Assembly: GCF_013315695.1 (NCBI RefSeq)
Contig: NZ_CP054353.1
Strand: one strand, 5' to 3'
DNA: 64,000 nucleotides
From: Escherichia coli
GTDB taxonomy: Bacteria; Pseudomonadota; Gammaproteobacteria; Enterobacterales; Enterobacteriaceae
In this document: positions 32,786-55,038 of the stretch, piece by piece
Position numbering within the stretch: position 1 is the stretch's first letter
Layout: the number at the start of each line of letters is the position of its first letter
The notes under the pieces: model-generated
Database searches by the model: none
What the model was told of the DNA's origin: nothing
What the model saw: the letters and a program-made list of their open reading frames with translations, nothing else
Made by a program: the position numbers and the translations under genes

Positions 32786-33673
32786 TTAGCCATTCTTTCT
32801 TCCCGTTTTCAGTCCTCGATGGAAATCGTTAATTCGCTTAATGGTTTTAACCGCACGCTGCGGCACTGCGGAAGCTACCGACCAGACAATCATTTCCAGA
32901 CACAACAATACCGTACCATGTAGCGGCGTTTTCCCTTTTTCATCCCCGCGCGGAACATGAATCACGATACTGGCGTCTTTGCTAAAACGTGAATCCAGCG
33001 CGTTTGTCAGCAAAATAACAGGGATCCCCAGCCGCCTCGCCTCACGAAGCGTTGTCAGCCCTTCCCGGTGCGCAGATTTTTGCGCCATCATGATCAGAAC
33101 ATCGCCACGTTGAAGCGCGATCAGTTGCTCGGCAAGGCCAATACCCGTACGGTTTAGTGCCGTGGCAGGCAAACCTATGCGGTTGAATAGTCGTGCGGTA
33201 TAGTCCGCCAGGATACCCGAAGCGCCAATGCCAAAAATAGCGACTTGCCGTGCCTGCACCAACAACGCTACAGCTTGCGCAAGCGCGTGGCGGTTTTCAG
33301 GCTCTGACAGGACATTACAGGTATACAAATGCCCTTCAAGAACAAAGTCGATTGCGGTGTTAACATCGCTCGTCAAGTTACTCACCGTCGTAGACATCTT
33401 TTCGCTGGAACTAAGGGCTGGACCAAGCCACTGTTCCAGAGTGCGTTTCAGATCACGCAGCCCGGCAAACCCCAGGGCCTGTATAGCCCTGATAACAGTG
33501 GCATCGGAAGTGTTCAACGTGGCCGCAATTTCCATCGCCGTTTGCTCGAGTACCACTTCACGATGCTCATTAATGTAGCTGGCGACAGCTCTTAACCCAG
33601 GCGTTAACTGACTCGCGCGAGTGCGAAAACGCTCACCAAAAATATCAACCCGCGCTTTATCTTTCTGGATCAT
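32786..33673 (-). CDS. RpiR/MurR-family regulator (HTH_6 plus SIS domain)
   Basis: 295 aa; last gene of the ABC transporter operon, 4-bp overlap with the binding-protein gene. Confidence 0.8.
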   Translation of the reverse strand: MIQKDKARVDIFGERFRTRASQLTPGLRAVASYINEHREVVLEQTAMEIAATLNTSDATVIRAIQALGFAGLRDLKRTLEQWLGPALSSSEKMSTTVSNLTSDVNTAIDFVLEGHLYTCNVLSEPENRHALAQAVALLVQARQVAIFGIGASGILADYTARLFNRIGLPATALNRTGIGLAEQLIALQRGDVLIMMAQKSAHREGLTTLREARRLGIPVILLTNALDSRFSKDASIVIHVPRGDEKGKTPLHGTVLLCLEMIVWSVASAVPQRAVKTIKRINDFHRGLKTGRKNG

Positions 33674-35677: not shown

Positions 35678-36657
35678 TTGAACATCCTCGTCGCCATAAT
35701 GACAAAAACAGGCGCACCAACTAACGCCGTCATGACACCGGTCGCTAATTCATGGGGCGTGAAAAGCGTACGGGCAATAATATCTGCCAGTAATAACAAA
35801 AGTGCGCCGACACAAGCTGAAAGAGGGAGCAGAACGCGCAGATCCGCTGATACCAGGCGCCGGACAATCTGCGGTACTAGCAGGCCGACAAAACCAATGG
35901 GGCCAGCAATCGATACGGCTGCGCCACAGAGCAACGCGATCGCAAGCAGGGTGAATGTTCGCGTGCGGAGTACAGAGACGCCCAGCCCCTGCGCCATGCG
36001 ATCGCCCAGTGCCAACATGTTAAGGGAGGGTGCAAGGTAAAGGGCTAACACAAATCCCCCCAGAGAAAACCAGGCGGACGTACCCAGCGTCGCCCAATCC
36101 TGCCCCGCTAAATCACCTGCTAGCCATGTCCGCATCGCCAGCAGTGTTTGTTCGTCAAGAATCAGGATTGCAGCCGTTATTGAGGACACGAACGCCGATA
36201 GCGCCACGCCGCATAAAGTAACTTTCATTGGCGTTAACCCTGAACGCCCTGCGGAGGAAAGCAGCAATATCAACAGGAACAATAACGCGCCGCCCGTAGA
36301 TGCCAGCAGTGGGCGTCCAACCGGAAAGGCCAGCCCAAGCGCACTGGCAGCAACGACAGCAAGAGCGGCTCCGGCATTTAAGCCTAAAATATGTGGCTCC
36401 CCCAATGGGTTACGAATGACAGCCTGCAACAAAGCACCAGCAACTCCAAGAGAAGCACCGGTAAGCAATGCTGCCGCTAAACGCGGCAAACGGAGTCTTA
36501 CAATTACGTTGTGATCGAAGTTTTGCGGTTCAAAATGAAGAAATGCCTGCAATACCGTTTGTGGTGCAATAAATCGGGCACCAATCCCTGGATATACCAC
36601 GCATCCCACCAGCAGTAAGGCGAGGAAAATTACAGTAACCAGCCCTGTGCGCATCAT
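35674..36657 (-). CDS. FecCD-family ABC permease
   Basis: 327 aa; 4-bp overlap with the neighbouring genes. Confidence 0.8.
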   Translation of the reverse strand: MMRTGLVTVIFLALLLVGCVVYPGIGARFIAPQTVLQAFLHFEPQNFDHNVIVRLRLPRLAAALLTGASLGVAGALLQAVIRNPLGEPHILGLNAGAALAVVAASALGLAFPVGRPLLASTGGALLFLLILLLSSAGRSGLTPMKVTLCGVALSAFVSSITAAILILDEQTLLAMRTWLAGDLAGQDWATLGTSAWFSLGGFVLALYLAPSLNMLALGDRMAQGLGVSVLRTRTFTLLAIALLCGAAVSIAGPIGFVGLLVPQIVRRLVSADLRVLLPLSACVGALLLLLADIIARTLFTPHELATGVMTALVGAPVFVIMATRMFK

Positions 36658-37463
36658 ACTTTTTCTACACCACGAAACGGCATGAAGAACGGCTTTCCCG
36701 TCAGAGGATTTATTGATGCGTGAACATCAACGTCAAAGACAGCTTTTACCAGCTCAGGCGTGCAATGCTCCCCCTCATTCAACACACGCACCACTTTCCC
36801 CTGGCGTAAAAATATCAACGTATCGCCATAATTGACGGCAAAATTCAGATCATGCAACACCACGACGACTGTACGCCCGTGATGACGTGTTAAATCATGT
36901 AATAACTCAAGAATTTCAACCTGATAACGTAAATCAAGCCAGGTTGTGGGTTCATCCAGCAGGATATAAGGCGTCTTTTGCGCCAACACCATCGCAATCC
37001 AGCAACGCTGACGCTGCCCGCCAGAGAGTTTTTCAACAGGTAAATGTGCAAACTCCTGCGTACCCGTTAATTTCAGGGCCTCTTCTACCGCCAGCTCATC
37101 GGCGTCGCTCCATTGACGAATGAAATTCTGCCAGGGAAAACGCCCACGCGACACCAGTTCATAAACGGTTAAGCCCTCCGGCAATAATGGCGACTGCGGC
37201 AAGATCCCAAGTCTACGGGATAACGCTTTCGTTGGTTGCTCGTGAATCGCTTTGCCATCAAGCAATATCGAACCGCCCATGGGTTGCAAGATACGTGCAA
37301 TGGTGCTGAGCAACGTCGACTTTCCACAGCCGTTTGCCCCAACCAGAACGGTCATTTTTTCTGTGGGAACGGAGAAAGAAACACCATCAACAATGATCTT
37401 CTTGTGATACCCGGCAGAAACATTGTCGAGGATCAGCCCCTGCCCTTTTGCGTTATGTGCCAC
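36654..37463 (-). CDS. ABC transporter ATP-binding protein (FecE/FepC-like)
   Basis: 269 aa; Walker A GANGCGKST, signature LSGGQRQR. Confidence 0.85.
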   Translation of the reverse strand: MAHNAKGQGLILDNVSAGYHKKIIVDGVSFSVPTEKMTVLVGANGCGKSTLLSTIARILQPMGGSILLDGKAIHEQPTKALSRRLGILPQSPLLPEGLTVYELVSRGRFPWQNFIRQWSDADELAVEEALKLTGTQEFAHLPVEKLSGGQRQRCWIAMVLAQKTPYILLDEPTTWLDLRYQVEILELLHDLTRHHGRTVVVVLHDLNFAVNYGDTLIFLRQGKVVRVLNEGEHCTPELVKAVFDVDVHASINPLTGKPFFMPFRGVEKV

Positions 37464-37717
37464 GTGTACGCCAACTTAATCAAAGACAAACAAAAATAAA
37501 ACTCATTCTCCTTTGAGAGTTTGACGCCACAAAATGTAGTAGTCAAGCAGTTAAAAGCCACACAAAAACAAGGTAAATAACAGGTAAAATATTTTTGCAC
37601 ATAAAAATAAAAACATTAAATATCAATAATTTAAAAGCAATCAAATTGTATAAACTTTTCATAAAAACACATGTAGCAATTTTTTGTTATTTCTCATTTA
37701 CTACTACATTACTGCGT

Positions 37718-37738
37718 GATTGAATGATTCTCAATTAC
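37718..37738. promoter_or_regulatory. candidate Fur box in the divergent promoter region of the iron-uptake locus
   Basis: gattgaatgattctcaattac, partial match to the Fur consensus, in a 370-bp AT-rich spacer. Confidence 0.3.
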
Positions 37739-37836
37739 ATATCCGATGGCGAAATAACAAACGGATAGTGCTTAGTGAGCAATAAGAAACAATTTTCACT
37801 CGCGACAATCCGCGAGTTTTTGGGATAACAGACTAA

Positions 37837-39978
37837 ATGGCTATGTTCACACCTTCATTCTCAGGACTCAAAGGTCGGGCGCTCTTTTCACTGCTTTTTG
37901 CGGCACCGATGATTCATGCAACAGACTCTGTAACGACCAAAGATGGCGAAACAATCACTGTTACAGCAGATGCAAATACCGCAACTGAGGCAACCGATGG
38001 TTATCAACCTCTGAGCACCTCTACGGCGACATTAACCGATATGCCGATGCTGGATATCCCGCAGGTGGTCAATACGGTTAGCGATCAGGTTCTGGAAAAC
38101 CAGAATGCGACAACGCTGGATGAGGCGCTTTATAACGTCAGTAACGTGGTACAGACCAATACATTAGGCGGGACTCAGGATGCTTTTGTACGCCGTGGGT
38201 TTGGCGCAAACCGGGATGGCTCCATCATGACCAACGGCCTGCGAACTGTACTTCCTCGCAGTTTCAACGCCGCCACAGAACGTGTGGAAGTGCTAAAAGG
38301 TCCGGCCTCCACGCTGTATGGCATTCTCGATCCTGGTGGATTGATTAACGTCGTGACCAAGCGCCCGGAAAAAACATTCCATGGTTCTGTCTCAGCCACG
38401 TCCTCCAGTTTTGGCGGAGGCACTGGGCAACTTGATATCACAGGTCCCATTGAAGGCACTCAGCTGGCATACCGCCTGACGGGGGAAGTGCAGGATGAAG
38501 ATTACTGGCGAAACTTCGGTAAAGAGCGCAGTACATTTATTGCCCCGTCACTCACCTGGTTTGGTGATAATGCAACAGTAACCATGCTCTATTCCCATCG
38601 GGACTATAAAACTCCGTTCGATCGTGGAACGATTTTCGACCTTACGACGAAACAGCCCGTAAACGTTGATCGAAAAATACGTTTTGACGAACCGTTTAAT
38701 ATTACAGATGGTCAGTCCGATCTGGCGCAACTCAACGCAGAATATCATCTCAATAGCCAGTGGACAGCGCGCTTTGATTACAGCTACAGCCAGGATAAAT
38801 ACAGCGACAATCAGGCTCGCGTTACCGCGTATGATGCAACGACAGGAACGCTGACACGGCGTGTTGATGCAACTCAGGGATCTACCCAGCGTATGCATTC
38901 TACTCGTGCGGATCTGCAAGGGAATGCTGATATTGCTGGGTTCTATAATGAGATTCTGGGTGGGGTGTCATATGAATATTATGATCTTCTGCGCACAGAT
39001 ATGATTCGCTGTAAAAACGCTAAAGATTTCAATATCTACAACCCCGTTTATGGCAATACCAGCAAATGCACAACGGTTTCGGCGTCGGACAGTGATCAGA
39101 CGATCAAACAGGAGAGCTACTCAGCGTATGCACAGGACGCGCTCTATCTGACCGATAACTGGATTGCCGTCGCCGGGATCCGCTATCAGTATTACACGCA
39201 GTATGCGGGTAAAGGCCGTCCTTTTAATGTCAATACTGACAGCCGCGATGAACAATGGACGCCCAAACTGGGGTTAGTCTACAAACTGACGCCATCGGTA
39301 TCCTTATTTGCCAATTATTCGCAAACATTTATGCCGCAGTCGTCAATTGCCAGCTACATTGGCGATCTTCCACCGGAATCATCTAATGCTTACGAAGTCG
39401 GGGCAAAATTCGAGCTATTCGATGGTATCACCGCAGATATTGCGCTGTTTGATATCCATAAACGTAACGTGTTGTATACCGAAAGTATTGGTGATGAAAC
39501 CATTGCCAAAACGGCAGGCCGTGTTCGTTCAAGAGGGGTAGAAGTCGACCTTGCGGGAGCATTAACTGAAAACATTAATATCATTGCCAGCTACGGCTAT
39601 ACCGATGCTAAGGTTCTGGAGGATCCTGATTATGCAGGGAAACCATTGCCGAATGTTCCTCGTCATACCGGTTCGCTATTCCTGACTTATGACATTCATA
39701 ACATGCCTGGCAATAACACACTGACGTTTGGCGGTGGTGGACATGGCGTAAGCCGTCGTTCGGCAACCAATGGGGCTGACTATTATCTGCCAGGCTATTT
39801 CGTTGCCGATGCCTTCGCTGCATACAAAATGAAATTGCAGTATCCGGTCACACTGCAATTAAACGTCAAAAACCTGTTTGATAAAACGTATTACACCTCT
39901 TCCATCGCCACAAATAATCTGGGGAATCAGATTGGCGATCCGCGTGAAGTGCAATTCACGGTGAAAATGGAATTTTGA
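37837..39978 (+). CDS. TonB-dependent outer-membrane siderophore-type receptor
   Basis: 713 aa; signal peptide; TonB-box-like ETITVTA; C-terminal aromatic residue (F). Confidence 0.85.
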   Translation: MAMFTPSFSGLKGRALFSLLFAAPMIHATDSVTTKDGETITVTADANTATEATDGYQPLSTSTATLTDMPMLDIPQVVNTVSDQVLENQNATTLDEALYNVSNVVQTNTLGGTQDAFVRRGFGANRDGSIMTNGLRTVLPRSFNAATERVEVLKGPASTLYGILDPGGLINVVTKRPEKTFHGSVSATSSSFGGGTGQLDITGPIEGTQLAYRLTGEVQDEDYWRNFGKERSTFIAPSLTWFGDNATVTMLYSHRDYKTPFDRGTIFDLTTKQPVNVDRKIRFDEPFNITDGQSDLAQLNAEYHLNSQWTARFDYSYSQDKYSDNQARVTAYDATTGTLTRRVDATQGSTQRMHSTRADLQGNADIAGFYNEILGGVSYEYYDLLRTDMIRCKNAKDFNIYNPVYGNTSKCTTVSASDSDQTIKQESYSAYAQDALYLTDNWIAVAGIRYQYYTQYAGKGRPFNVNTDSRDEQWTPKLGLVYKLTPSVSLFANYSQTFMPQSSIASYIGDLPPESSNAYEVGAKFELFDGITADIALFDIHKRNVLYTESIGDETIAKTAGRVRSRGVEVDLAGALTENINIIASYGYTDAKVLEDPDYAGKPLPNVPRHTGSLFLTYDIHNMPGNNTLTFGGGGHGVSRRSATNGADYYLPGYFVADAFAAYKMKLQYPVTLQLNVKNLFDKTYYTSSIATNNLGNQIGDPREVQFTVKMEF

Positions 39979-48119: not shown

Positions 48120-48215
48120 TACAGCTTAATATTGCCCCGATAAGCGGGGCAATCTCTTATAATCCACCATTCATAATTCCCATCAATATATAAACACATA
48201 CATATCCAACCTTTA

Positions 48216-48245: not shown

Positions 48246-48603
48246 TCGTCATATGCAAGCGATATTGTAATTAAAGTAAGTGAATACATCACAACATAAC
48301 TATTTGATATTATTTGAATACTTTACTTTTATCTCACCAGATTTAAATTTAATAATTAAAAAACAATGTTGCAGGGATCACACTACACAGTATTGAACAT
48401 TGTGATTGATATATTGCCCCCCTACTATCCATTAAACATAAATATTTGTTTCACCGAATAACAACATATTTAAAAGAAACACAAAAGCATTCTCACTCTT
48501 TATTGAATTAATATTCATATTCACGTAACGAATTTATTAGAACCCTCTCAACAGTCGATATTCATCATTATTATATATTTGCGTTATATAAGGAGATATA
48601 TCC

Positions 48604-54699: not shown

Positions 54700-54935
54700 A
54701 ATCAGGGCAGTCTTAGGAGTGGCGGCATATAGCCAAAATAACGTGAGCGGGTCCATGCCCGACAGAATCGTTACTCTCTCCCATCCGGACTCTAACCGTC
54801 GGCCCCGGAATTACACCGGATCTGCTGTCCTTTGAGTTCGCACCCAAAGCGCTCGCGGGCTTTCAACTGAGTTGATTTACCGCCGGTGGGGAATTTCGCC
54901 CCGCCCTGAGAATAAGCGGATTCACTATAACGCTA
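54700..54935 (-). promoter_or_regulatory. FMN riboswitch (RFN element) in the ribB leader
   Basis: Minus strand carries GGGCGGGGCGAAATTCCCCACCGGCGG and the downstream GGATGGGAGAGAG-type conserved segments. Confidence 0.8.
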
Positions 54936-55038
54936 ATGATTAGCGGCAGCAACGCATAGCTTCACATAATTCTGGTTTATGACTTACCCTTATCGCACTA
55001 CAATGGCACTCAACACCTATCAGTACAGGGAAACTACA

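Follow-up and report, generated by a model that had tools for sequence, protein, structure and literature searches.

The stretch of DNA analysed here (hereafter, the window) comprises 64,000 nucleotides of Escherichia coli (NCBI RefSeq assembly GCF_013315695.1, contig NZ_CP054353.1) and contains the fit locus, flanked by ygiN and parE. The minus strand carries the genes fitR-E-D-C-B and the plus strand carries fitA. Besides fitB and fitR, the minus-strand unit encodes two FecCD-type permeases and a periplasmic binding protein. The boundaries given by the RefSeq annotation on identical DNA agree with those of the open reading frames, and the gene names fitR, fitE, fitD, fitC and fitA are found in the Sakai record. 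The fit genes were reportedly first described by Ouyang and Isaacson in 2006. Of 5426 complete E. coli genomes, 1870 contain the region by megablast, and it is thus an accessory locus. The positions of the genes, sequence elements and Fur occupancy peaks discussed below are collected in Table 1.

The fitB and fitA genes diverge from a spacer of 373 bp with a GC content of 30.6%, compared with 50.6% for the window. At 23.5% GC, the 200-bp core of the spacer ranks second in AT-richness among stretches of that length in the 64 kb, and it contains 15 runs of A or T of at least four bases. Eight small open reading frames of at least 20 amino acids can be drawn within the spacer, but all are of low complexity and lie in AT-rich, unconserved DNA, and they were rejected as genes. 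An earlier note, made from the sequence alone, had described a long divergent control region and had quoted within it a 21-mer, GATTGAATGATTCTCAATTAC (37718-37738), as a weak partial match to a Fur box; its account of spacer length, AT-richness, A/T tracts and the 21-mer is exact throughout, and the divergent arrangement is as it described. Reporters for fitA and fitB have been made by cloning the spacer in either orientation (Ouyang and Isaacson 2008, PMC2593036). On the evidence presented below, the region is very probably a bidirectional promoter/operator, repressed by Fur, that serves the ferric-siderophore uptake genes of the E. coli fit locus.

Table 1. Genes, sequence elements and Fur occupancy peaks at the fit locus, in window coordinates
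Feature	Position	Strand	Details
fitR	32786-33673	minus	product: MurR/RpiR-family regulator
fitB	36654-37463	minus	ABC ATPase
fitB-fitA intergenic control region	37464-37836		probable bidirectional fit promoter; boundaries from ORFs and RefSeq
Fur box 1, AAAAATAAAACTCATTCTC	37492-37510		17.7 bits, rank 1 in window, shuffle P 0.0026; invariant block
042 ChIP-exo peak P109	37502-37514		box 1
CFT073 ChIP-exo peak P123	37505-37517		box 1
Inferred PfitB -10 hexamer, CAAACT	37518-37523	minus	17 bp downstream of TTGACT
CFT073 ChIP-seq summit 3607777	37524		box 1; height 2545
Left repeat copy, reads TTGACTACTACATT toward fitB	37533-37546	minus	candidate FitR operator; contains TTGACT
Invariant block TGTAGTAGTCAAG	37535-37547		
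-35-like TTGACT of PfitB	37541-37546	minus	within left repeat copy
042 ChIP-exo peak P110	37610-37622		extra central peak; adjoins IHF-like element
Central IHF-like element, TATCAATAATTTA	37621-37633	plus	exact match to WATCAANNNNTTR; A/T-only tract upstream
Partial partner ATGTAG	37671-37676		28 bp upstream of CTACAT; fitA side only
-35-like TTTACT of PfitA	37697-37702	plus	within right repeat copy
Right repeat copy, TTTACTACTACATT	37697-37710	plus	candidate FitR operator; contains TTTACT
Invariant block TTACTACTACATT	37698-37710		
CFT073 ChIP-exo peak P124	37715-37727		box 2
042 ChIP-exo peak P111	37715-37727		box 2
Inferred extended -10 of PfitA, TG-a-TTGAAT	37717-37725	plus	17-bp spacing from TTTACT, invariant
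Invariant block: box 2 and flanks	37717-37739		
Fur box 2, TTGAATGATTCTCAATTAC	37720-37738		12.3 bits, rank 4 of 63,982, shuffle P 0.091; quoted site 37718-37738
CFT073 ChIP-seq summit 3607979	37726		box 2; height 2720
Conserved GCAAT(A/G)A block	37779-37785	plus	presumed fitA leader; at least 90% conserved at 6 of 7 positions
Leader hairpin ACTCGCG-acaatc-CGCGAGT, then five U	37798-37821	plus	ends 19 nt before ATG
fitA	37837-39978	plus	TonB-dependent siderophore receptor, 713 aa
Fur-occupied site in fitA coding region, TGCCAATTATTCGCA, with adjacent ChIP-exo peak	39309-39331		two mismatches to TGAnAATnATTnTCA
CFT073 ChIP-exo peak P125	39319-39331		fitA coding site
042 ChIP-exo peak P112	39320-39332		fitA coding site

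Candidate Fur sites were scored with a matrix derived from the CFT073 ChIP-exo peak coordinates of Gao et al. 2023 (PMC10164565, Dataset 2). Twenty-three peaks located at well-known iron genes (fepA, fes, entS, fepB, entC, fhuA, fiu, fhuE, tonB, sufA, hemP, cirA, mntH, nfeF, bfd, feoA, nfuA, ryhB, chuA, chuT and fhuF) yielded 21 distinct sites, from which a palindromic 19-mer matrix was built; the fit sites were left out of the training. The matrix recovers the classical 19-bp Fur motif GATAATGATAATCATTATC, although it was seeded with the classical consensus and therefore favours consensus-like sites. In leave-one-out scoring the genuine sites range from 4.9 to 22.3 bits, and both of the boxes found in the fit spacer fall inside this range. 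Box 1, the best match in the window, serves the fitB operon and is absent from the earlier note, whereas box 2, serving fitA, corresponds to the quoted 21-mer and is the weaker of the two. To gauge the significance of each score, dinucleotide shuffles of the spacer were made and the fraction reaching it was taken (shuffle P in Table 1). By sequence alone box 2 is indistinguishable from AT-rich background. The pair formed by box 1 and box 2 is distinguishable from it, as 0.16% of the spacer shuffles contain two sites that reach 12.3 bits. Matrix scoring, which the earlier note had proposed as a check, is thus inconclusive for the quoted site on its own and informative for the two sites taken together. 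Plain consensus matching was discarded, as in the window it fails to tell real Fur sites from background: box 2 agrees with the classical consensus at 12 of 19 positions and departs from the ChIP-exo 7-1-7 consensus TGAnAATnATTnTCA at three, and 41 sites in the window reach that level of mismatch where 30.5 would be expected.

Published maps of Fur binding show occupancy of both boxes in vivo. The ChIP-exo peaks were obtained in the iron-replete condition (Gao et al. 2023, PMC10164565), and Fur ChIP-seq is available for CFT073 (Banerjee et al. 2020, PMC7157518). The spacers of CFT073, Sakai and 042 differ from that of the window at 4, 28 and 27 of the 373 positions, respectively, and, as the spacers of CFT073 and the window are collinear, peak positions from that strain can be transferred exactly. 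The peaks of CFT073 and 042 and both ChIP-seq summits fall at or beside the two boxes. Sakai likewise shows two ChIP-exo peaks with the 211-bp spacing seen in CFT073, their absolute position being assigned through an inferred record-version shift of +129. The heights of the two fit summits exceed all others among the ChIP-seq table rows listed (iroN 2115, ireA 1485). In 042 there is an additional central peak, which is considered further below.

The two boxes are also conserved well beyond E. coli. Searching representative genomes with FitA yielded 39 loci, and the footprint extends over Escherichia, Enterobacter, Lelliottia, Silvania, Huaxiibacter, Citrobacter, Kosakonia, Kluyvera, Yokenella, Erwinia, Pantoea and Affinibrenneria. 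The divergent arrangement of fitB and fitA is present at all 39 loci, with spacers of 369-588 bp. Alignment of these spacers reveals sharply bounded invariant blocks within sequence that is otherwise unconserved, corresponding to box 1, the two short blocks that overlap the repeat copies described below, and box 2 with its flanks (Table 1). Thirty-three of the 39 loci have the same box 2, six differ from it slightly, and its distance from the right repeat is 11 bp throughout. Box 1 is nearly invariant, scoring 10.3-20 bits across the loci at a distance of 22-25 bp from the left repeat. Both boxes are real Fur sites, because the conservation and the published ChIP data show them to be so. The quoted sequence is accordingly a Fur site, with ChIP-exo peaks and a ChIP-seq summit on it, and the description of it as weak holds for its consensus match but not for its tall occupancy in vivo, nor for its invariance across about ten genera. 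A site that agrees poorly with the consensus can therefore be among the Fur targets with the highest occupancy in vivo.

The effect of Fur on expression is well documented. In strain i484, fitA was up 23-fold when fur was mutated, 2.2-fold when fitR was and 52-fold when both were; a fitB reporter rose from 168 to 525 units under iron deprivation (approximately 3-fold), and iron induction was retained in the fitR mutant (PMC2593036). Repression by Fur was cited in that 2008 paper as unpublished. Deletion of fur in 042, Sakai and CFT073 gave log2 fold changes of 8.15, 3.53 and 3.92, respectively, for fitA and of 5.90, 1.82 and 3.27 for fitB, and the operon from fitB to fitR was derepressed throughout, in a gradient falling along its length (PMC10164565). 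RNA-seq in CFT073 recorded changes of 6.96-fold for c3775 and 5.66-fold for c3774, and RyhB was without effect (PMC7157518). All six fit genes are derepressed in fur mutants, over four strains in total, as would be expected from the iron control that the earlier note anticipated. The Fur dependence of the region, on which that expectation turned, is borne out several times over by the derepression in these published mutants, and the Fur reading stands.

The earlier note had also allowed that regulation might be dominated by the RpiR-type regulator encoded in the locus, FitR. The FitR sequence matches the MurR/RpiR, AlsR and HexR models of NCBIfam with E values of 1e-14 to 1e-22, below the equivalog cut-offs. 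A dominant FitR, with Fur minor or indirect, would be in keeping with the place of fitR within the locus, with the poor consensus match of box 2 and with the observation that FitR binds the spacer and represses both reporters; in EMSA it shifted a 347-bp spacer fragment with specific competition, and its repression amounted to 2-5-fold, independent of iron and Fur (PMC2593036). The magnitudes of the mutant effects on fitA quoted above (2.2-fold for fitR, compared with 23-fold for fur and 52-fold with both mutated) run against this explanation, as do the independence of iron induction from FitR and the occupancy of both boxes by Fur in three strains and by two methods. Dominance of FitR is highly improbable, and for laboratory media it is already refuted by the cited genetics. 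The same genetics show that Fur dominates fit regulation. Dual repression by Fur and FitR at fit was already known, and the system behaves as published.

Silencing of the AT-rich spacer by H-NS, with or without StpA, has to be considered as another candidate for the main determinant of fit expression; the earlier note had raised H-NS as well. The composition of the core, with a tract suited to H-NS nucleation, and the accessory character of fit would favour such a role. In other genera, however, the spacer is less AT-rich (29-43% GC) while its architecture is kept, and mutation of fur alone produces a large derepression, so that any effect of H-NS is not dominant in those conditions. A search by locus tag in supplements of a CFT073 H-NS/StpA study gave no fit genes. 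We consider H-NS as the main determinant to be improbable.

A strict promoter scan of the region matched no promoter, and promoters were therefore inferred from conservation. Each of the -35-like hexamers TTGACT and TTTACT lies within a conserved repeat copy and is followed at a 17-bp spacing by a candidate -10 element. For the putative PfitB the -10 hexamer has C, A(-11) and T(-7) invariant across orthologs. That of the putative PfitA, TTGAAT, does not have the usual A at -11 and is of the extended type, and a conserved T-rich tract is present just upstream of the fitA -35 hexamer. From this pattern, each Fur box appears to be situated at a sigma-70 promoter. PfitB would be read on the minus strand as TTGACT-17-CAAACT, with a start predicted near 37511, and PfitA on the plus strand as TTTACT-17-TG-n-TTGAAT, with a start predicted near 37732. 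The two sigma-70 promoters would thus face outward, approximately 165 bp apart, each with its own Fur box; box 1 would cover approximately +2 to +20 of PfitB, and box 2 approximately -12 to +7 of PfitA. Under iron-replete conditions, Fe2+-Fur bound at both boxes would block RNA polymerase by simple steric repression, and under iron limitation Fur would leave the DNA and both operons would be derepressed. FitR adds an independent layer of autorepression of about two- to five-fold, most likely through the TT(G/T)ACTACTACAT sequence placed over both -35 regions.

The left and right copies of this sequence form a 14-nt inverted repeat that is 93% complementary, and the left copy is invariant in 39 of 39 loci. 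Read toward its own gene, each copy gives TT(G/T)ACTACTACAT, the first six bases of which are -35-like. The seven invariant bases that follow each hexamer are not explained by sigma-70. As FitR binds the spacer and represses both promoters, and little else in it is conserved apart from the Fur boxes (a short block in the leader and the IHF-like element at the centre being the only other strongly conserved elements), the repeat was assigned to FitR. By this process of elimination, the chance that the repeat is the FitR operator seems close to even, or slightly below. Neither copy contains a local palindrome, which is unusual for a dimeric HTH regulator; a partial partner, ATGTAG, can be recognised upstream of CTACAT on the fitA side (Table 1).

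Midway between the repeats lies the IHF-like element that matches the consensus WATCAANNNNTTR exactly. Its form among orthologs is wwTwTCAAnnnnTTAA; TCAANNNNTTR is found at a fixed offset in 24 of the 39 loci, and most of the others have a version with one mismatch. In a profile of 38 distinct orthologs the T-C-A-A and T-T-A positions are conserved and the four N positions are not, and G and C are essentially absent upstream of the element. Position 2 of the IHF consensus (A) is T in most orthologs. An ArcA-type reading of this segment, based on direct GTTAA repeats 11 bp apart, was rejected because the second repeat is unconserved. Published IHF maps are known for K-12. The Fur pan-regulon table has no fit entries for K-12 strains.

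The distance from repeat to repeat falls into two classes, a short one of 164-166 bp with 21 loci and a long one of 186-188 bp with 18. Between the repeats, the sequence is barely more similar across genera than shuffled sequence (0.60-0.69 versus 0.56-0.59), and the flanks vary more in length, from 69 to 133 bp on the fitB side and from 125 to 277 bp on the fitA side. Distances from the element to the left and right repeats are 88-89 bp and 77 bp, respectively, in the short class and 99-100 bp and 87-88 bp in the long class, so that the arms differ between the classes by approximately one helical turn each.

This geometry raises the possibility that the module of approximately 250 bp functions as a phase-locked nucleoprotein complex, in which IHF would bend the centre and the two promoter halves, each with a copy of the candidate FitR repeat and a Fur box, would come together and be repressed cooperatively. 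Such an arrangement would extend the account of Fur repression given above rather than replace it. In its favour are the two discrete repeat distances, despite near-shuffled intervening sequence and flexible flanks, and the addition of about one turn to each arm, which a phase-sensitive bent complex would predict, and the extra central peak of 042 lies where a strong Fur motif is absent. The length classes, however, follow the divergence of FitA and may reflect only one or two ancestral events, and the consensus behind the IHF assignment is short and degenerate and was matched in AT-rich DNA. The 042 peak could be explained more simply by the decent Fur-like sites, scoring up to 15.6 bits, that several orthologs carry next to the centre, and no helical periodicity of AA/TT at 10-11 bp was found in the spacer. 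We regard the phase-locked complex as a tentative candidate only. If the helical phasing is true, the pattern of arm lengths would make fit a natural example of a phase-locked divergent promoter.

In the presumed leader of fitA, downstream of the conserved GCAAT(A/G)A block, a hairpin is predicted with a 7-bp stem (37798-37817; -11.4 kcal/mol, z -4.6). The block itself reads GCAATGA in Enterobacter and there contains an upstream in-frame ATG, which was dismissed as an alternative start because it is ATA in E. coli and hence not conserved. Orthologs form a hairpin at the same place from unrelated stem sequences, with z scores of -1.9 or lower in 16 of 20, and Sakai and 042 share the compensatory pair G37802A / C37813T. 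In a covariance-model alignment all nine pairs show double changes, with 40 double-change cells compared with 20.0 +/- 3.4 in shuffled alignments (none of 500 shuffles reached 40) and a covariation score of 0.341 against 0.07-0.17 for slid controls; these values are somewhat inflated, as the alignment was fitted to the model. RNAalifold applied to a MAFFT alignment of the leaders predicted no structure. The covariation nevertheless indicates that the hairpin stem is conserved. The sequence 3' of the stem is variable, being five U in E. coli and AUAUUUU in Enterobacter and having no U-run in Erwinia, and a terminator scan found none in the region. A combined arrangement, in which a phase-constrained module with a predicted IHF-type bend is followed by the leader hairpin as a further, post-initiation control step, is conceivable but rather unlikely.

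The earlier papers on fit by Ouyang and Isaacson (2008), Banerjee et al. (2020) and Gao et al. (2023) concern the same locus and the same repression by Fur and FitR, but do not place the sites of either protein at nucleotide resolution, and site mapping is named as future work in PMC2593036. Confirmation of Fur control, which was established, changes little; the gain is a nucleotide-level map that should ease targeted mutagenesis of the fit transporter, which is expressed during urinary-tract infection (PMC7157518) and in sepsis models (PMC2593036). What we infer as new is the two-box layout, the promoters, the repeat, the central element and the leader hairpin. The layout resembles that of the enterobactin promoters (fepA-fes, fepD-entS and fepB-entC), which likewise serve back-to-back iron-uptake operons and have Fur boxes over the promoter cores, as is predicted for fit. 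The enterobactin spacers of CFT073 are approximately 110-240 bp long, however, with Fur peaks in pairs, separated by 39 and 119 bp, or one peak shared, whereas the fit boxes are 210 bp apart in a length-constrained spacer of 373 bp and a dedicated second repressor is present.

FitR resembles the RpiR/MurR/HexR repressors, which have an N-terminal HTH and a C-terminal SIS phosphosugar-binding domain, in being an autorepressor within its own operon, and its SIS domain suggests a phosphosugar as ligand. Control of a siderophore transporter is atypical for this family, which is known for sugar and amino-sugar catabolism, and the candidate operator, a non-palindromic pair of 13-14 bp separated by approximately 165 bp, differs from the usual local palindrome. 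With the IHF sites of complex enterobacterial promoters, which consist of WATCAANNNNTTR and an upstream A/T tract, the IHF-like element of fit shares the consensus, the tract and the central position.

An Rfam scan of positions 37300-38000 gave sub-threshold matches only, which were discounted as chance; these were the plant family MIR827, spanning 37678-37795 with 27.6 bits against a gathering score of 65, and the Leu leader and AfaR. The same stretch as the MIR827 match contains an 11-nt inverted repeat (37683-93 and 37751-61) that is specific to E. coli and unconserved in other genera. Outside the spacer, a further Fur-occupied site is found within the coding region of fitA, where ChIP-exo peaks of both CFT073 and 042 are positioned, and peak P120 of Sakai corresponds to the same site once the inferred +129 shift is applied.

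The divergent promoters of the fitB operon and fitA each carry one copy of an invariant inverted repeat (see the table), and both copies overlap -35-like hexamers of their respective promoters. The repeat is a candidate operator for FitR, the RpiR-type repressor of fit; no mapped FitR binding site was found in the fit literature as far as this was accessible. Across the 39 orthologous loci compared (L004-L042), the distance between the two copies is constant at either 164–166 or 186–188 bp, and the DNA that they enclose (window 37547–37696) is of near random similarity. A central IHF-like element (37621–37633) holds its position within this segment, the longer class having approximately 11 bp extra in each arm. 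In the Enterobacter-type spacers (L006-L016 and related loci), a CCCTG-N8-CAGGG palindrome adjoins the left, fitB-side repeat, roughly 15–45 bp inside it; this palindrome is absent from the E. coli spacer.

Features of the fit locus and other Fur-matrix matches in the window
Feature	Sequence	Position	Remark
Invariant inverted repeat	TT(G/T)ACTACTACAT	37533–37546 and 37697–37710	One copy per promoter
Perfect 11-nt inverted repeat	TTTGTTATTTC / GAAATAACAAA	37683–37693 and 37751–37761	Brackets Fur box 2 (37720–37738) in E. coli
fitA leader stem-loop		37798–37821	Structure kept, sequence not, across about ten genera
Fur-occupied site in fitA coding region	TGCCAATTATTCGCA	39309–39331	With adjoining ChIP-exo peaks
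Fur-matrix match	GATATTCATCATTATTATA	48557–48575	12.3 bits
Fur-matrix match	TATAACGCTAATGATTAGC	54926–54944	14.1 bits

Within E. coli the region falls into two allelic classes, of at least 99% (1059 genomes) and 90–95% identity (718 genomes). Differences from Sakai are clustered in the central spacer (16 of 28 within window 37586–37658), and none of the 28 lies within Fur box 1 or Fur box 2. In strain 042, a third intergenic Fur ChIP-exo peak has been reported in mid-spacer (window 37610–37622), and derepression of fitA in this strain is the largest among the three of that dataset, with a log2 value of 8.15 (PMC10164565). Scanning the spacer centre of 042 with the Fur matrix returned no site above 7 bits under this peak.

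The stem-loop in the fitA leader shows covariation at all nine of its base pairs, and a compensatory G-C to A-T difference is seen among the E. coli alleles themselves. The E. coli structure looks like a weak terminator; the U-run that follows it is not universal among the orthologs compared. The 11-nt inverted repeat shows no conservation in other genera. A sub-threshold match to a plant microRNA precursor (Rfam) over the same stretch was dismissed as spurious.

The intragenic site in fitA has two mismatches to the ChIP-exo consensus, and is adjoined by peaks P125 of CFT073 and P112 of 042 (PMC10164565). In Sakai (NC_002695.1), P119 and P120 are labelled 'intergenic' and given to parE and yqiA (PMC10164565, Dataset 2). 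Applying an inferred shift of approximately +129 bp between record versions puts both peaks within the fitA gene, near window positions 38328 and 39321, and the labels then look like a mis-assignment; by the same shift, P120 probably corresponds to the intragenic site.

Two further high-scoring Fur-matrix matches are present elsewhere in the window; one of them, GATATTCATCATTATTATA, is separated by approximately 190 bp from the 200-bp segment with the highest AT content in the 64 kb, which starts at 48171.
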